Of a DNA stretch of 64,000 nt, positions 48,141 through 59,530 are shown piece by piece (position 1 is the stretch's first letter; every line of letters starts with the position of its first letter). The DNA is from Psilocybe cubensis (lineage: Eukaryota). The stretch covers positions 372,001 through 436,000 of the forward strand of contig CM038998.1 of assembly GCA_017499595.2 (NCBI GenBank), written 5' to 3'. A program made the position numbers and the translations under genes. The notes under the pieces are model-generated. The model did not search any database and was not told the DNA's origin. It was given only the letters and a program-made list of their open reading frames with translations.

Positions 48141-51010
48141 ATGCTGCATAAACAGGCCCACAGTTTGATCTTTCGCAACTGTAAGTTGATTAAGGATCAA
48201 AGAACGTTTATTCGCTGATCGCTATTCAGTTTTAACGACCGATTATACGTCCACTAAGGCGACGGCCTTTGTGAGTATCAACCTTCACAACGTATACTGC
48301 AAATTTCAATTGGTGGCAATTATATATCCCTGCAGACTCCAGATATCATTCCTCAGTTTGGTAACACCGTCGATCCGGCCCTTTTGATCGACGAATACGA
48401 CCAGTTTATCGGTCTTCCTGTTCAACCAAGCGAAAGAAACAATATTTACGTTCGAGGAAAAACGACATCGAATGTGGTGCCGGGATCTAAAACTGCTATC
48501 GTTCTCCGTGCCGTACCGAGCGAACTCATTTTATGGCCTCAAGCGTGGAACAAGGTGACACCGACTGGTCCAGGACCCTTGGTTATTGATTCTTCTATTC
48601 CCAACAAAGGTAATGGTTCAAATTGTTGGAAAGTATAGCATTACTAACCGCTGTTGCTAGTTGTTACGTTAAGCACGCCTTTCCAATTTTCACCGTCCAA
48701 CCTGTGTGGTTTCAACTTTGCGTTGATTGCTACACAAACCCCACTCCCTGAAACCAAACGAAACACTCGTCTGAGAGACACATTGCCTCCTCCTCCTCCT
48801 GACGCTAAAAATTGGAGAGAACTCGTCAACTTCTTCAACACCGACACTTCGACAGTTTATTATAACGTATGATGACATGCTTTTTGTTAGGAGAATGACA
48901 ACTAATCTAAATGATAGGTCGTCGTCGCAGATCCAAATGCTCCTGTCATCAGTGTTTCTACGCGTCTCCGTGTTGTTGACAATGGTTCAGACCCACTCAA
49001 CTTCAGAATTACCATTGAGGTATTTGCTTCATATCATATGGTTAAGACGAAACATTAACGTAAATGTCACTTTGTAGACCTCGATAATGCCGGAGGGAAC
49101 CTTTGTATCTCTCTCTTCCTCGACTGGTCTGATCAGCCTTCAAAAGACTCGTCTTGCAGACGACATTGGTGTCCGGGTTAAGTTGGCGCCGGGATTTGAC
49201 GACATTATTACTCTTTGTATCTTTCCTGACCCTAAAGGCATCATCGAAACCTTCGCCTGGGTATCACTCCAAGCTAGTATTATTCCACCTCAGACAGTAA
49301 ATTCTGGAGCCACCCCAATCAGCAAAGTCGTCTTACTTGGTGCTCTGAATATCATTTTCCACGACGACGCTGCCACGAACTTGAAACATGCAAGTCCTGC
49401 GGCAAATCAACTAAAGAAGCTGGTTGAGACGGTAAACATGGGGGAAAGGAGCGAGGTTCCTCATGCCCAAGCGGGTACCATTACTTCTCAGAGTACTAAC
49501 GTAACCGGTGCTGCAAATGGATGGTGGTTCCGTGATGCTATAGGCGATCATAACCTCTTTCCGAGGACGGCCAGCCTGTGTCATTCACCTGGTATGGGTG
49601 TACTTAATCTTCTGGAAGTATATTTCTGATCCGCTGCTCCGCAGATATTCAACCTGTAGGTATAACACCCAGGTCCGACTCTCAGCAAATTCTAGGCGGG
49701 TCAAATGCGAATACGGATTGGACCGATGCGAATCGTGTGGTTATTCAACAAGGCGCGCCGAACTACATATACGTTCGTGGAAATTGCACATTGGGTAGTG
49801 ACTATCCCGTTCAAATGCGACTCTTCTGTGTCCCAAGCGCTTTACTCCTTTACCCGCCTATGTATTCGCAATTCTCGGTCACTGACGCTGATGACCACAG
49901 TAATCCGTTTGTTGCCATTCGAAACATCACATCTACTTCTTACAATAGTTTCAATGTGGTGGACACGGCGTTCGACCTCTTAAACCCTCAGCGTCCACCA
50001 TCAGGAAGTGATCACTACTGTCTAATTGCCGAGACTCGCAGTCCGACTACCGAGAACCCCGACCCGGATTGGCCACACGAAGACACAGGCTCATTTAGCT
50101 CAGGTATTTAAATATCTGTGTCTGATAAATCGATTCAAGCCAATTGACCTTTGCTTCATTAGGCGCTGGATTCAACACATGGATAGGTAGCACCCCTACC
50201 GTCTGTTGGAGAAATGTTGGTTACAAGACTGGTGGTGCCCAAGTTATATGTTCTACCAATGTCACAATTCCAGCTGGACTATATTCGTCATCTACTCAGT
50301 GGACATTGGAAGTCGATGCCGACAACGCCCCTGTCGGTTCCGCTTGTGCGTATACATCCTATTCGAGACTTATAATGAAGCATTTACAAATTGACCTCTG
50401 CAGGGTCGTTGACTGGAAATGGCCCTTCAATTCCAGGTGTCAACATCGGATTTGCTCAAACAACAATTACGGCCCCAAACATGGTCTGCGTGCATTCTAG
50501 CTTTGGATTTATATTGGCGGACTAAAGGGACAATTCTAGGTTGAAGGATGCCACTTTACTGGGCTTCCCGCTACCGGATACTCATTCTCAGTCGTCCTTC
50601 AATGGTTTTCCAATGGCAAAACTCCCGGAAATAATATGAAATTCTCTTTCCTTTTGTATACAACACAACGAACCACAAGGTAGGCTTCTTCATGACTACT
50701 TGCATATCTCGTGAAACTTACACTATCTCAACGTACTAGCGCAAACGGTAAATTGATGAAAACTACCACCGCTAGGACCCACCGCCAAGAAGCAGCTGAT
50801 TGGCCATTTACGGTCGGTATACATCATCCAGGAGTCGAGGACAAAGGCGACGGCAACAAGAAGCACATAGGATATCTCGGTCACCGCTTCAAGAAGGTCG
50901 GACGCAACCCTTGGCCTCATGCGAAGGTGGACAAGGTGACTAAGTTGAAATCCGTCTCACCTGTTCCCGTCTATGCTATTGGTTCGGACCACTGGAACGT
51001 GAAATTCTGA
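48141..51010 (+). CDS. Uncharacterised tandem-domain protein family, copy C (11 exons)
   Basis: MLHKQAHSLIFRNF|LTTDYTSTKATAF|TPDIIPQFGN... with equivalent intron positions to copy A and an open frame through DHWNVKF-TGA. Confidence 0.9.
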
Positions 51011-51594
51011 TAATATACGCAAATCTCTAAAACTCGTTCTTTGTATTTTACTTCGTTCCCTTTCATCACAACTAACAAAAAAAATCTTGTATTGATCGTT
51101 TTAGGGCCATTTATAAATAAACCTACCTTTGATATAATACCCGTTTGAAGATGCGTCGAAAGTGACAGATCGAGCACGATTAAGTAGTACTAAATGGTAA
51201 CTCTGTGAAAGGAAGGAAGGAGGAATGTGTCGTGACAAGGTACACTGGTCTCTCGAGTGAAGATTGCACCTATCTAGTAGCCTGTCGTATATGCGGCTTT
51301 CTAGATTTTCATTTACGAGGTCCTACCAGACCAAATCAATCAATCTTCATACATACACGAATCATCTACTCTGTCCAAAACGACAGTGGCATATGAGTGA
51401 AGCCTTTCCCGCACAGTTTCCTCACTTGGTAGAAGCCAGAGATTGCACTAGATGAAACCACGGACGCATGTGCAGCTGTAAAAATTACGGTGCTGTCGTC
51501 TTTAAGCGACTTCGGGAGCTTGTGGACCTTCAGAATTGAAATACAACCCGACTAGTCGGTCGTATTTGGGGTTTACCGATCATGGGGGTGGGTA

Positions 51595-51824
51595 TGTTAT
51601 CTGCCAGTTATCTGCCCGGAAGATTCCGAGAGGACATAGTTTCGCTCTTTACTCGACAACTCCACGGTTTTAGACTGTGAAAGTTGACATTGACGTTGTT
51701 TATAGGCAATAAAAGACTAATATCACTTCAGATTTATAAATGAGTGAGTGAGTGAGCTCAGAAACATGAATATGTTATCTGCCACAGCCAATGTTATCTG
51801 CCACTCCCCTATTGTTATCTGCCA
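51595..51824 (+). repeat. Five subterminal (T)GTTATCTGCC(A) direct repeats
   Basis: Copies start at 51595, 51607, 51773, 51792 and 51813, beginning immediately inside the left TIR. Confidence 0.85.
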
Positions 51825-52071
51825 GCACACCATTTTCAGTCCATTAGCTAATGCATTCTAAATTCCCAACTCTGTTATGGTACCAAAATCGTAACTGGTT
51901 GCGACGAACAAACGACAAAACTTGATAACTCTTGCACTACATTCAATATCCAACATTTGCTCTGTGTAGCATTGAGCCAGAAGTACAGGTATGTCCTTTC
52001 AATCAGCCTGGAGCGTAGAACAAGTTTATTTATCCATTTGTTTATGTACTATTAAACTTGCAGCAACTTGA

Positions 52072-55000
52072 ATGTCGACAAACATTTCAGTTCTATCCGG
52101 AGAAGATCAGGAATCCAGTTCCATTAAAACTGCACGCTCCCATAGCAATATGTCAACCATTGCCCCCGTACAACCACCGCCAGCGGAAACTTTTCATGAC
52201 ACGTCTGAGTTTGTTCGTGACCGTGATGTTACGGGTACGTTAATTAAATCACGTACGTGTCAATGACGTGTTGTACTAACCAACACCGTGTAAACGATGC
52301 ACCTATAGATAGTGAAGCAGATGACGAGTTTGGCTTGGAGTTGGAATTAACAATTGAAGATCTATTTGCTCTTGATGAACTTGAACGTGAAGAGTTGCAA
52401 AAATGGGACAAAAAGGCAAAGCAGGGCAATAGTAAGCAATTAACTACTTTGCAACATTCCTTTACACTCGTTATATTTACTGTTTATCTATACCCATAGA
52501 ATCAGCACCCGAATCCCTCTCACCAATAGCCGAAGATCAGCAGTCAACAGTAACAGATGCCGCTCATATATCCGTTAGGAGTGAGAAGGAGGATCAAACT
52601 CCGTCTCAAATAACCCTTGCACAGCTTCGTGAAGTTGCTTTGCGCTCACAGCGCCGTACGTGTGGATATTTTTGTAAGAGCATTGTACTAACAGTACTCA
52701 TTTTAGAGCCATTTTTTACCCCATATGCTACATACGAGGATAGCGAAACGGATGATGATGCAGACATTAGTGATTGTGAAGACGAGCCCGGGAAACAAAA
52801 ACAAGAGCCTTCTAAGCCAAATGCGAAAGAGAAGCAATCAGGTAAGTTCCGTATGTCTGTGACACTGTATGGGCTTTATATCTCAATGTTGGATTTAATA
52901 GGCTGGTTTAAAAGACCGCAGCATATGCCGGAATGGCTATATGACTTTTTTGTGACTACGGTGCAGCCACTAATCTACGCAAAGCACGGCAGAAAGCGTA
53001 GAATGCCTGCCATGTTTTCCGATAACACTCGAGCATATGCGCCGCTGTCATTCTGGATAAATCCTCCCGAGCCTTGCATTTTACTTTCTAAGTATCGATT
53101 CAATCTTCCCACGCTCTGGCGCCCACGGATCTATGTCTGGATTCCTCACGACTTTGTGAGATCTATGTGCTGCCCAAACTGTGGAAGTCCTCTAGAGAAG
53201 AATGGAGCCTCACGTCCCCGTCGAATTATTGACATTGAAGACAATTTTTATATTGTAACATGGAAATATTACTGCCGTGACGGGTGCAAGTCGGCATTTC
53301 GAGGTTGGAACACAGCCATAATCAATTCTTTGCCTGCATACCTGCGATTGGCCTTTCCAGCGGTGCTTTCTCGCCGGAGCGGTGTCTCCACGCGCCTTTT
53401 ACGTCAACTCCGAGTTTGTAACCAACATAAAATGGGTCCGAGTGGCTATCGGTCAATGTTGCTTGAAAATCACACTTTCAAATTCAACCAAATTCAAAAC
53501 CAATATCTCGAGGCAGTTTTTGAGATGGTTCGTGGACAGCAGCATGCGGCATCAACAGGACAGGAAACATTGCATGCATTTGTTCCTCCAAAGGCTGATT
53601 CATTTGGGAACTTTACGGACCTCGACAAATATGCTGGATTTGTTCCAAGCGAGCGATACCTTGCAAGCATGATGAATAAAGCTATTGAATGGGATGAGGG
53701 AGATGCTAACCAGCACACTGCGTGTCTTGCTCCCGACCAAATTGCAATTGATGACTCACACAAGGTAGCGTTGTCAAATATGTTAGATATATTACATTTA
53801 TTCTATCTAATCTCCCTTGTTTTAGGTCAATAAACATATTGCAAAAGTTGATGGTGTACCGGTTTTTACCGCACTATTTACATGCATGGACTCGAAATAC
53901 ATACGAGGACAGGCATTGACGCTCACCAAGTCTCATGAAGAACGTGCAGGTCCCCTGCAGCAAATAGCTAATTCAATACATCGCTATGGACACGATAGAC
54001 CAAGTGTCATGTACTCTGATGATCCAGTCAAGGTAAGCTCATATATGAATATTTCTATCAGTAAGAAGGTCTTAAAATTAGCCTATTCTAAGGACAAACC
54101 GCTTCTATCCAGTGCTTTCCCGGAACTCTTTGAAGATTTAACACCAACAGCGGCTGCTCATGGCTTGACAGCGCTCAACTTACCTAATGACATCAAAGTG
54201 TCCTGGCTGGCATCGTGGGATGTGACAGAATCTACACTTTCTGCTCTCATGTCGTCGCTTGATTCTGATTCTGACCAATATCTGTGTGTTAGCCTTGATG
54301 CTGAATGGAACTTGTCACGCAAAATTGGAGTGTCAATCATTCAAATTGCCCCTCACAACCTTCCAAATATTATCTATATCATACCCGTACGTGATAATCC
54401 AACTATATTTAAACAGTACCGTGACCAACTATTATCAAGGTTCATAAATTTGGTGACAGACTACCACCATCACTCCTCCGGCTTTTAATATCAAACCAAG
54501 TCTTTAAAGTTGGATCCGGGATCAAGGGCGACATCACTCGATTGAAAAAACAGTTTCCAATTCTAAGCTCGCAGCTGACTTTCAACGTCATTGACTTGAA
54601 AGAATACTGCATTGAGCGTGGATTAATTGCGCGAAAGGCATCTGGATCGCTTGAAGCTCTATGTGAGGGTATTCTCAAGCAGTACCTTCCCAAAGAGCAA
54701 CGGCTCAGACGATGTGAGGACTGGGAACTCAAATCACTAAGCGCCGACCTTCTTCATTACGCTGCACGTGACGTCTTTGCATCGCGCATACTTTTTGAAA
54801 AGGCAATGGAATGCGCGCCTATTTCCCGTCCACGGTTTGACTCACCGGCCGGAACACCTATTGCTCTTCTTTCTCAGGAAGGTAGCGACCCAATTGCATA
54901 TGGTGTCATATCTCCCAATCAACCAACATCACTCGGAAACATTCGGGTTAAAACACCAAATCGCAACCGCCTTGTCCTTGATATAAGCACTGTACTATCA

Positions 55001-57514
55001 CCCTCGGCCGCTGTTATGCTTCATTTGCCATCACTGGGACAGAACCGAAAGGGAAAGACAAAATCGGGAGCTCTTACATTAGAGCAAATACGGGCGTCAT
55101 CCTTGGATCCAAAAACATCCACGTTTAAAATTGTTGCACCGCTCTTGTTAATCGAATTTGATTTTCGAGCATCACCGTCTAAGGTAAGTAAACTGTTACA
55201 ATGAATGTGAATCCATATTAACCCTCAAAATTTCAGTTAATTGACAATACATTGCAACCTAATGACGTGGCATCCAATCAGCGCACAGTTTTAAAGGACA
55301 ATCAGCGGCTTACCGGGTCTAGTACCAAGGAGGATAGCTTGTTGGATGATACTGCCTCTGTGGTCGATGATTTAATCGATGAAACTGAGGTGTCATCTCA
55401 AGACACATTGGATCTGGTTGCTTTGGACATGCTCGAGGCATACTCAAAGGTTGAAAATTCCGAAGGTTTGTTAAATAAAGCTTGCAATGATTGATTTAGT
55501 CTCATATTCATTAAATATCATTAGATACTCAAATAGTGCGGCCTACCACCCAGCCCTCTATTGTGGATACTCTTCAAAAGTTGATTAATTCACCACCCGA
55601 CGCAAAATCCGAGTATACACGCGTGAAGAAGGATATTTTCCACGCATTTCATATGATTCCCATGTCAGTAAATCATGGCGCACGTCCATCTTTTCTCCGT
55701 GCCATGCGTGATCATTTGATGCGCTGGGACCCCACAATCCAAATGGTAGTCGATGAAGCCTGCCGGAAACACTTTAACCTTACGTTTGAGCAAATGCTAC
55801 TCAGAAATCCTCGATTTATTGCCGAACGCACCCCACGATATGTCCCCTCTCCAAGTGTCCTTGTTCCCGCTCTAAAACTGGTCTTTGAGACATTCGGAAA
55901 CGCCTTGGATGTCAAGACAGGATTGCCATTATTCAATGCAGATGCACATCAGAAGGCCAACGCTGTAATTGAGCTTGCACGCGAAGGCTACCTCTCTGAC
56001 ATTGAAGGAGTTGTCCTATACGAGCGAGCAGGAATTGACAAATATGGCCTTCAAAAGTATAAATGCTTACGTGGAACAAACAATGTTGAAGGCGGCCCAC
56101 ATGGTGACATTTACCGAAAGTTTGGCGCTCTTCATGGTGAGCTTTTAATTGCTTAGATATTTTTATAGGACTGATTTTTTTGGATTTTTTGTTATAAAGC
56201 GGGTCCAAGACTCACCGTTAACTGCCTGACTGATCATAGAACATGGTACAATCTACAGGTCAGTTGTTAACATTCTTCATTGACAAGGACTAATAATGTA
56301 CTTGTTTCCAGGCATTTGCAAAACATGTCTTTGGCGTAGACTGGGATTATCACCACGATATTGCATTGATAAACCGAACTTCCTTTCTTCTAAATTATCT
56401 ATCTGATACTATCGATGGATCGGCCTCATATACCGAGTGGATCAATGGGGATCTTTATGAAAGAACTAACGAGGAGTTTGGGATCTGCAAGTTTCCGGGT
56501 AAATTTTAATTTACTAACTTTCTATTGCTCATACTCATGCTGTTTAGATTCACTTCGTATTCGACTGGGAATGGAGTCATATAGCACTCAGGCTGAAGTC
56601 GAGTATCGTCTCAGCTCCAGTGACAGTTGGCTTCGTAAGCGACAAGGCCTGGCTCTTCCAGTATTGCCACCAACGACACTGGAGGCCCGGAAGTATTTCT
56701 TTTCAAAAATTCGCGATTTTGCTGCTCTGGCCAATGATGCCGGCCAAAGTCGGATCAATTTTGAAGCATTTGCGCAGGAGTGGAACCGAACAGCAAACGG
56801 AAAGGATCGAGTATACATTACTACTGAGGTACTAGCAGCCTACTCCAAAACATGGGAAAAAACAACCAATATTTGGGCATCACAAGAACTCATTCAAGAC
56901 AAGCTCGAGGTTCTTCAACAGACAGCAAATGTATTTGCTGCAGAGAAGCAAACCTTTCCAGTATACCTGTCTGGAACATCCGTCTCAACACAGCCTCGAC
57001 ACGGAGTGATTGAAATACCGGAGTCATCGCAATCAGGCAATGTTCCATCTTCGCTCTCTGTTGGTCTTTCAATATCCCGTCCCGCATTACCCACTCCTGG
57101 CCCTACACAGAATATTGATAACTCTGTGATTGATCCCCACTTACTATCTCTTTCTGGTCCAAGGCCTCGTGGCTTAGTGCGGTGAGTATTCACACTGTGG
57201 TTCTCTATCTCAATTTCTCAATTTAATCTCATTGCATCCCGTGTAGTACAGTGTCTGTAACACCGTCACTGGAAAGTCAAAATGAAGACTTGAATATTAC
57301 AAATGAGCGTCCAGCAAAGCGCCGACGCACTGTCCCTGAAAGCGAACGTAAACGTTCCATTCGTAAATGTCGTCGATGCCTCAAAACTACGTGTGCAGGG
57401 AACAGTAATGTACTCAACTGTACCGTTGAGTGCAAGGTTCCGTGTAAAAAATGCAAGCGCACAACAGATTGTCGAGGCGTGGATGGCGGTCGATTCTGCA
57501 CATGGGAAGGGTAG
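52072..57514 (+). CDS. Transposase: Zn ribbon (DUF6729/zf-ISL3-like) + DDE core + inserted DEDDy 3'-5' exonuclease + C-terminal Cys cluster (~14 exons, ~1,550 aa)
   Basis: CPNCG...RRIIDIED...KYYCRDGC; IAIDDSHK; VMYSDDP; exonuclease motifs SLDAEW / IKGDITRL / HYAARDV; RVKKDIFHAF; KCLRGTNNVEGG; RKCRRC...C...C...CKKC...C...C. All exons join in frame through GT-AG introns. The start codon is tentative. Confidence 0.85.
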
Positions 57515-59438
57515 TAATATCATTTTTAATGCTTTATTAACAATTAGAAATATACAGTCGGCCGTGTTCATGACTTTTAAACTACAAGTATTCTACCGAA
57601 CGTCAAGTCCTTTGCAAATTCAGAGTTCAATGTCTCACGCTTTTGGATACACGTGATGCCAGTGAAACATTGGTAATCCCTCTCCATTTTCCTCTTTTTT
57701 TCTTCATTTTTCGCATTCAATACCCACCCCCATCGACGGAAAACCGTATTTGGCCCTGTCCAATTAGGCTTAGTAAGTCAAAGTTCAAGGTCCGCTTTGT
57801 GACTGATGTGACGAAATTGCGGCCCTCTTGTCAATAACGACGGTTTTGACTGGCTTCCACCATCTTCAATCCCCTTCCCATTGCCATTCCTATGGAGGCT
57901 TTCATTTCATGCCTGTACATAGTAGAATATTAAGATTTTGCTCTCCATGAAGCACTGACCCGACATATCATGGCGCGAGAATGACAATTTTTTGTTATGG
58001 CACTTTCTCACGGAACTGGAAAGGAACAAGTACTACAGAATTATGAAGGTAGTCATTCATAAATATTTCGTGAACGGTTTTCAGTGGCATGGTGATGATT
58101 TTTGTGGTACAGGCCGGTGCTATCCAACAATCTACGTTGATTAAAGATTATCTACGCTGCCTACGTCATTGGGAGTGACATCGAAGTGACAGTCCGAGAC
58201 AAGGCCAAGCACAGTCGGACTTTGAATCATCAAATCGGTGGCATCGAAATACGACCGACTAGTCCGGTCGTATTTCAATTCAGAAGGTCCCTAATTAACA
58301 CCGTGCTTCCCTTGAACTATTCCTCCTACAATTCGTATGCCAACAATACTACTGAGGAACGTTTGAGTTATAGAAAAGAATGAGCATGTAATATTCATTG
58401 ACTGAAAGCCTAGAACCCTGATCAGGGTGTGCTTAGCCAAACACGCATGGTAAATTTCGTCTAGTCACTTACTTGTCTAGTCATTCGAACAGTATGTGCG
58501 AACGTGTAATTGGCGGATCACGAAGGCACCTTGCGCCCACAACAAAGAAAATTGTTGCTAGAAGTACACGTCGATCAATGACGGGTGATCATTGGTGTAC
58601 AGATTTTCATCTTCAGGGCCCAGGCTTTAAGGAAAACTCTGGCGCAGCTTTGACTGATGACCTGGCATTTGATGCCCTTTCATTGGCATCAAGTGTTCAT
58701 CCTAGACGTCAAGTGGCTAGATAATATCCTACATAGACTTTGCCCACTGACCTTGAACGAAAGTATAATTTTCCATACTGGTTACTCCCGATTTTAGGTA
58801 GCATGTTTAATATACTTGGTAGTTTAATAAAGTATTGTTCAAGAGGCTTGAATATGTGTCCCTGTCCTGTGAGCCGTTGCTTCGCAGGATGAGAGCCTGC
58901 GAGCCAATTACTTTCTACTTGCTTTGTATGAGCTTTCTTCGCCCTTACAGCTGGGCGGTAATGCCAGCACAAAAGCAGAATGCCGCCATAGAGAAAGAAT
59001 CATTTAAAATGTGTGGTAAATCGAGCGCTTTGCAAGAACGACTTTGGCCCCTGATTAAATCTCAGCCTACAGACGCAAGTGGATAGAATTAAATTAGATG
59101 ATCACGGAAAATTGTGCAGTTATAGCCATGCATAAGGCATACCTGCCTGGTCTTATTTTGAATTTCATTCGAACACGGGGAAGGTCACCTTGTAAAGGTA
59201 AAGCCTCTCAGAGAAGGAGGTCTGGTAGCTGCTTGGAAGCTACACAATAGTTGATAACTTTTTGCCAAATCGATCCAGCGTCACTGTAATGAACACTTGA
59301 CCTGAGCGTGCGCCATGCGCCAACTTAATAGTGCTATGTATCCGATACATGATGCGTGAGGAATGGATTGATGCCGCCTTTGGTACAGCACGATTCGGCT
59401 GGATTGCTTTAGTACGATGTATCTGCTTGACGCGAAGA

Positions 59439-59445
59439 TATATAA
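59439..59445 (+). promoter_or_regulatory. TATA box of family copy D
   Basis: TATATAA 92 bp upstream of ATG 59531. Confidence 0.55.
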
Positions 59446-59530
59446 GCCAGCAAATTTCTCCAAGAATTCTCAAGTTCTACCTCTCCAAGAACTCCTGAGT
59501 CTCAAGCTTCACACAGCCTTTACTTCAAAA

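Follow-up and report, generated by a model that had tools for sequence, protein, structure and literature searches.

The window analysed here is a 64-kb stretch of Psilocybe cubensis contig CM038998.1 (64,000 nt; all coordinates refer to this whole stretch), whose DNA is fungal in character, with short GT-AG introns. On its forward (+) strand, positions 52072-57514 hold a gene of 14 exons encoding 1557 amino acids (aa), very probably a transposase of the Dada superfamily, of the C/DxxH class, with a DEDDy 3'-5' exonuclease embedded in its DDE catalytic core. Exons 1-7 lie at 52072-52234, 52309-52431, 52500-52655, 52707-52841, 52902-53764, 53826-54032 and 54093-54386, and exons 8-14 at 54440-55183, 55237-55465, 55525-56136, 56200-56258, 56312-56498, 56548-57181 and 57247-57514. 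Joined by script, these frames gave a coding sequence of 4674 nt in which every intron is GT-AG and the single stop codon stands at the end. The model was colinear with full-length homologues by protein comparison and tblastn, and the gene is apparently an intact transposon copy.

The product of exon 8 is 100% identical to a public P. cubensis protein, P0001, which bears the name 'Exonuclease 3'-5' domain-containing protein 2'; a second P. cubensis protein, the paralogue P0002, is 92% identical and is named 'Werner Syndrome-like exonuclease'. P0001 is a shortened model that begins at residue 370 of the 1557-aa protein, leaves out exons 11-12 (56200-56498) and also the last exon (57247-57514); adding 369 to a P0001 residue gives its number in the full protein.

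Cysteine-rich regions are found towards both ends of the full protein. The N-terminal one, at 53171-53287 (+) in exon 5, is a CCCC zinc finger matching DUF6729 (PF20499, E 1.3e-19), with the pattern C283-x2-C286 ... C317-x3-C321, whose Cys are kept in 37/38, 37/39, 44/44 and 39/45 aligned relatives. A literature search for DUF6729 found no papers. The C-terminal tail, at 57368-57499 (+), has nine Cys within residues 1510-1553 and a basic KRRR stretch ahead of them; it is all-Cys, without His, in the P. cubensis copy, and a comparable Cys-rich tail occurs in the gene models of 12 of 62 relatives.

Exonuclease domain and transposase core

A sequence-only reading of this DNA had placed a complete exonuclease of the WRN/EXD2/RNase D type at 54280-54790, with ExoI, ExoII, SLxxL...L.K...R..DW and ExoIII motifs. 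All of these are present in the + strand translation: ExoI as LDAEW (D618/E620, 54294-54308), ExoII as FKVGSGIKGDITRL (start 54503, with D678 in IKGD), SLEAL...EDW between ExoII and ExoIII, and ExoIII as YAARD (Y754/D758, 54758-54772). The domain does lie in that span, but the span holds two exon parts split by a 53-nt GT-AG intron (54387-54439) that interrupts the domain, and the fold is wider, extending over P0001 residues 204-405, which correspond to residues 573-774 of the full protein and to 54162-54820 (+) of the window.

The proposed type agreed with both profile and fold searches. PF01612 matched exon 8 alone with an E value of 2.2e-7 and P0001 with 2.1e-10 (residues 225-399, 41.1 bits; curated cut-off 23.6), and a profile of 18 relatives, run against the PDB, retrieved WRN exonuclease (E 3.3e-11) and EXD2 (7.7e-7). 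Foldseek with the first AlphaFold model gave WRN exonuclease at E 3.7e-10 and a TM score of 0.81. With the better model, VIA-align gave WRN exonuclease at Z 24.7 (root-mean-square deviation, rmsd, 2.0; 184/186 residues; 23% identity), followed in its list by Nibbler, RNase D, Exd1, Klenow and Rrp6; EXD2 and Nibbler/mut-7 were other relatives found by fold or profile. WRN, EXD2, Nibbler/mut-7 and RNase D (PF01612, DnaQ-like) share with the P. cubensis domain the same fold and all five DEDDy residues. These motif and fold matches are far beyond chance, and translation and model together confirm that 54162-54820 encodes a complete predicted DEDDy 3'-5' exonuclease domain. Unlike a free enzyme or the N-terminal domain of a helicase, this exonuclease is an internal insertion in a transposase.

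The two halves of a predicted RNase H-like core lie on either side of it. The first, at 53750-54020 (+), runs from D476 in AIDDSHK (53750-53752) to D545 in YSDD (54018-54020) across the intron 53765-53825, so that the spacing between the first two Asp of the DDE triad (D1 and D2) is 69. The second, at 55632-56090 (+), comprises strand b5, the DxxH motif, an alpha-helical insertion domain and the catalytic E1160; DxxH reads DIFH (D1008/H1011, 55632-55643), and E1160 (56088-56090) lies within GTNNVEGGPH. The exonuclease thus stands, as had been read, between the YSDD Asp and the DxFH/Glu region, all in the same spliced frame.

AlphaFold with a 62-sequence alignment, A3 (identity down to 24%), resolved the N-half of the core and gave a predicted local distance difference test (pLDDT) of 80.1 and a predicted TM score (pTM) of 0.70. 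The first core half in this model consists of b1 (D), b2, b3, a helix and b4 (D), at pLDDT 77-93, and the second half reaches 91-97. In P0001 numbering, a strand at 104-109 (with D107) is followed by strands 127-132 and 137-143, a helix at 148-164, a strand at 173-175 with D176 directly next to it, helices up to 203 and then the exonuclease (204-405); after these come a beta-rich domain (418-518), acidic disorder (523-613), a strand at 636-638, D639-x-x-H642, a helical domain (656-755), a hairpin (768-783) and a helix (788-791) ending at E791. The modelled topology of the core is RNase H-like, in the order b1-b2-b3-a-b4...b5...aE, and both exonuclease flanks belong to one RNase H-like fold in the model, which bears out the suggestion that a discrete DnaQ-like domain would be seen within that fold.

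The sequence-only reading had further likened the insertion to the usual helical insertion domain that transposases of this clade carry in the stretch from the second D to the E. An insertion after the second D is what the model has, but it is not at the usual site: the alpha-helical insertion domain is retained after DxxH (P0001 656-755), and the exonuclease lies in an upstream loop. Because the helical domain still sits after DxxH in the model, the exonuclease is separate from it, a predicted additional insertion between the post-D2 helix and strand b5, upstream of DxxH. The inserted module amounts to about 430 residues in three parts: the exonuclease; a beta-rich domain of unassigned family that adjoins its 3' side (54821-55162, +; residues 775-888); and an acidic linker, predicted to be disordered (55163-55600, +), which includes the introns 55184-55236 and 55466-55524. 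The strands of the beta-rich domain have a pLDDT of about 85-95, a Pfam search with this domain gave no match, and a family hidden Markov model (HMM) found it in 99 of 199 proteins; the linker is below 50 at P0001 523-613.

Apart from exonucleases, the only entry among the best 50 listed by VIA-align from 48,161 PDB representative chains was the ISCth4 transposase (6xg8), at Z 10.4 (rmsd 3.8, 235 residues aligned), a value that is moderate by the tool's caveats and comes from a whole-model search. Such a search hardly probes the parts outside the exonuclease, and the fact that Hermes, the P element, RAG1 and Transib are missing among the 50 listed matches is uninformative. The moderate ISCth4 score counts against a transposase core, as do three other results: an AlphaFold model from 18 close relatives had pLDDT <50 in the core's N-half, in the region of the first two Asp; Pfam gave no link to any transposase for four full-length proteins at E up to 1, MULE/Mutator families included; and the profile run against the PDB, with an E limit of 10, returned exonucleases and two weak unrelated rows, with no transposase. 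Only the exonuclease and DUF6729 were recognised at the sequence level by Pfam and the PDB profile, and an Atlas lead to PF20700 Mutator is weak (score 0.86). A single polypeptide with two conserved predicted nuclease centres, the exonuclease lying inside the DDE core, is supported because the gene model, the AlphaFold topology, the ISCth4 match, the conservation of residues and the colinear relatives all bear on it.

Conservation and distribution in fungal relatives

Searched with exon 10 by phmmer, a set of 1.84 billion representatives yielded 1130 proteins with E values no higher than 0.001; the list covers the best 150. Residue conservation was counted in alignment A3, which holds 62 fungal relatives. 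The DDE residues are kept in 52/52 (D1), 60/60 (D2) and 58/61 (E) aligned sequences, those of DxxH in 57/61 (D) and 60/61 (H), and those of the exonuclease in 58/59 (D), 59/59 (E), 60/61 (D), 62/62 (Y) and 62/62 (D). Pairwise identity averages 0.37 over the exonuclease; the core halves reach 0.44 and 0.46, the beta domain 0.32 and the linker 0.16. The notion of two nuclease centres in one enzyme is upheld by these counts, both sets of predicted catalytic residues being nearly invariant.

Family HMMs built from alignment A2 were run on 199 proteins. The exonuclease was located between the core halves in 72 of the 74 proteins having both halves; in one exception (P0054) the parts are out of order, and the other (P0101) is without an exonuclease between the halves. 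Where over 250 residues precede DxxH, 107/108 proteins have the exonuclease, so the survey of homologues favoured the reading in respect of presence as well as of the acidic residues. Thirteen relatives had no precomputed PF01612 match; nine of them match the family exonuclease HMM, three end just after D1-D2 and one is out of order. A search from a Mucorales seed gave 26 Mucorales-type proteins, 21 with PF01612. No clear full-length relative without the exonuclease was found among the fungal relatives sampled, a sample that does not extend to animal Dada. Named members come from Agaricales, Polyporales, Boletales, Atheliales, Trechisporales, Mrakia, Mucorales and the chytrid Podochytrium, and several genomes, such as those of Favolaschia and Mycena, hold multiple copies. 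These data indicate that the exonuclease is near-universal in the sampled fungal relatives (Agaricomycetes, Mrakia, Mucorales and a chytrid).

The same results bear on whether the architecture is an artefact of the gene model, the exonuclease being a gene of its own that is nested within two transposase fragments or stands between them. The gene structure was built from sequence alone, and the public model P0001 differs from the 14-exon model, both of which leave room for such an error. Against it, short canonical introns join the frames with no stops, independent predictions from many genomes in three fungal phyla have the same order, and the RNase H fold in the model requires both flanks in one chain. 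We regard an artefact as extremely improbable.

Two relatives have unusual architectures. A predicted protein of 3352 aa from Podochytrium sp. (P0086) contains three successive D1D2-exonuclease-DxxH units, which suggests that gene prediction joined tandem copies and is reminiscent of the tandem Dada-U1 insertions mentioned by Kojima & Jurka (2013, PMC3706591). In Mucorales, a protein of 1437 aa from Apophysomyces sp. (P0207) combines DUF6729 with SH3 (PF14604, PF00018, PF07653) and has no PF01612 in precomputed Pfam; either a variant architecture or a chimeric gene model may account for this.

Candidate ends of the element

Two inverted repeats of 57 nt bracket the gene. The left one, at 51524-51580 (+), begins GGACCTTCAGAATTGAAATAC and is a candidate terminal or sub-terminal repeat; the right one, at 58234-58290 (-), has a perfect 12-bp stem palindrome inside. 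They are 84% complementary (44 nt at 93% by blastn), and the outer 21-nt motif occurs at these two sites only in the window (0.01 expected). The left repeat lies 548 nt ahead of the start codon and the right one 720 nt past the stop. The termini were judged from one copy only, and the inverted repeats are taken as candidate ends. Five exact direct copies of GTTATCTGCC, all those of the window, lie in the left sub-terminal region (51596-51823, +), with none at the right end; they are possible candidates for transposase-binding sites.

A second inverted pair, 51570-51595 and 57720-57745 (26 nt, 85% complementary), has its left arm adjoining the outer repeat and its right arm some 490 nt inward of the right outer repeat. 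It may reflect inserted or additional sequence towards the right end, or may represent sub-terminal repeats. Upstream of the element, at 49608-50500, the + strand has open reading frames of 167 and 123 aa with no Pfam match.

The 92% identical paralogue, the multi-copy relatives and the flanking repeats are signs of a mobile element. They have to be weighed against domestication, in which a host family of WRN/EXD2-like exonucleases took in a transposase domain and is immobile. The public names (EXD2-like and Werner Syndrome-like exonuclease), the strong conservation across Agaricomycetes and the failure to find a target-site duplication would fit such a host gene. The DDE and DxxH residues, in turn, are kept as well as those of the exonuclease, in keeping with an active transposase; genomes carry several divergent copies each; the gene stands between inverted repeats; and the same architecture was described by Kojima & Jurka for consensus-built repeat families of Laccaria. 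Domestication is therefore very unlikely in our judgement.

Relation to Dada and possible roles of the exonuclease

Kojima & Jurka (2013, PMC3706591) described Dada as having a DDE transposase with DxxH, like those of hAT, Kolobok, P, MuDR and IS256. In their account, Dada proteins are multi-exon and about 1400 aa long, with a finger of the CCCC type towards the N-terminus and one of the CCHC type towards the C-terminus, and the elements, of 4.7-11 kb, produce 6-7 bp duplications and insert into multicopy U6, U1 or tRNA genes. Targeting of small-RNA genes was shown there only for families with definable termini: animal and Perkinsus Dada sit in such genes, and the Laccaria families are given without a named target. 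Dada-1_LB and Dada-2_LB of Laccaria bicolor and Dada-1_ES of Ectocarpus were reported to have a DEDDy exonuclease placed after the second D and ahead of DxxH, and the animal Dada of that paper are exonuclease-less. Muszewska et al. (2017, PMC5751038) report 1,023 Dada elements that have the domain, from four phyla of fungi.

The P. cubensis protein shares with the published Dada the CCCC finger, DxxH, the position of the exonuclease, protein size and exon count. Its D1-D2 spacing is 69, compared with 68 in Dada-U6_DR, and 155 residues separate the CCCC finger from D1, compared with 135 in Dada-U6_DR. We consider it very probable on these grounds that the gene encodes a Dada transposase, an assignment made by published motifs, spacing and architecture and not by alignment to Repbase Dada proteins. 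This manner of assignment tells against it, and so do several features of the copy. The C-terminal finger, which has a corresponding position in the protein, is all-Cys, whereas that of Dada is described as CCHC, and the element has 57-nt inverted repeats, whereas Dada-U6 and Dada-U1 are described as having no terminal inverted repeats. No 6-7 bp target-site duplication adjoins the repeats, four shared 6-mers within about 135 nt of them being at chance level. No small-RNA target of the U6, U1 or tRNA kind known from described Dada was recognised: a tRNA search around the element found none, and Rfam gave no match over 50500-59500, whether at the gathering score or with E values up to 5, and neither a small nuclear RNA (snRNA) or tRNA gene nor a fragment of one was seen at its flanks.

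Among the 50 structural matches listed, the transposase belongs to the IS256 family. ISCth4 (6xg8) has D175/D241/E348, with C262xxH265 at the start of its helical insertion domain, and is related to eukaryotic MULEs (PMC7780238). It shares with the P. cubensis protein an RNase H-like DDE core in which C/DxxH opens a helical insertion domain before the catalytic E, and a similar D-D spacing (66 in ISCth4, 69 here). Sequence similarity between the protein and ISCth4 or other C/DxxH families was not detectable by Pfam or the PDB profile. ISCth4, MuDR/MULE, hAT, P and Kolobok are not known to carry an exonuclease inside the core, and the N- and C-terminal fingers of Dada differ from theirs.

These comparisons raise the question of a separate C/DxxH superfamily near MuDR/IS256 that gained its DEDDy exonuclease independently of Dada. 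Several observations would suit it: the link to Dada was made by motifs, spacing and architecture; the inverted repeats are long and no small-RNA target was found, unlike in described Dada; the C-terminal finger lacks the CCHC pattern; the transposase that matches best in structure, among the 50 listed, is of the IS256 family; and there is the weak Mutator lead. Yet the point of insertion, the CCCC finger, the spacing of the two D and the multi-exon protein of about 1500 aa match published Dada, the host belongs to Agaricales, as does Laccaria, and the full-length proteins match no MULE or other transposase family in Pfam. Kojima & Jurka, moreover, already place Dada near MuDR, hAT, P, Kolobok and IS256. 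We hold a separate superfamily to be highly improbable and retain the assignment to Dada.

In C/DxxH transposases, the DDE site cuts and joins transposon ends and the helical insertion domain guides the DNA (PMC7780238). In the P. cubensis protein, the DDE centre would cut and join the ends of the element, and the tethered exonuclease might trim 3' ends arising from excision or integration, on the transposon or on the donor flanks. Trimming of cleaved 3' ends was proposed for the exonuclease of the Laccaria and Ectocarpus Dada by Kojima & Jurka (PMC3706591), and the sequence-only reading suggested it too, next to trimming of excision footprints and degradation of silencing RNAs; from our analysis the end-trimming role appears about evenly poised between right and wrong. 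The exonuclease may instead resect the donor site for repair or act on RNA. Whether its substrate is DNA or RNA is not readable from the fold, because the nearest folds include DNA enzymes (WRN, EXD2) as well as RNA enzymes (Nibbler/mut-7, RNase D). A partial parallel is offered by KolobokD, a C/DxxH DDE transposon associated with a 3'-5' exonuclease of DnaQ-like type, for which degradation of DNA intermediates, starting at the 3' end, has been proposed (2022, PMC9587614). That exonuclease differs in being DEDDh (TREX/ERI1-like) and not DEDDy, it belongs with another superfamily, and it is listed there among 'accessory proteins'.

It could also be that fungal Dada with the exonuclease differ from animal Dada in having true inverted-repeat ends, no small-RNA-gene targets and a three-part insert with a role other than trimming, such as acting on silencing small RNAs or resecting the donor to steer repair; we think this unlikely.

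The architecture and the idea of end trimming have been known since 2013, and the P. cubensis copy is a new member and not a new kind. The main value of the analysis lies in a correction: the public names speak of WRN- or EXD2-like host exonucleases, whereas the evidence is for a Dada transposase. This bears on gene counts, and on how repeats are annotated, in the genomes of Psilocybe and other mushrooms. The exonuclease is also spread among fungal relatives more widely than the two species named in the 2013 description, and an apparently intact copy with candidate ends provides a concrete element for testing the role of an exonuclease in a DDE transposase.

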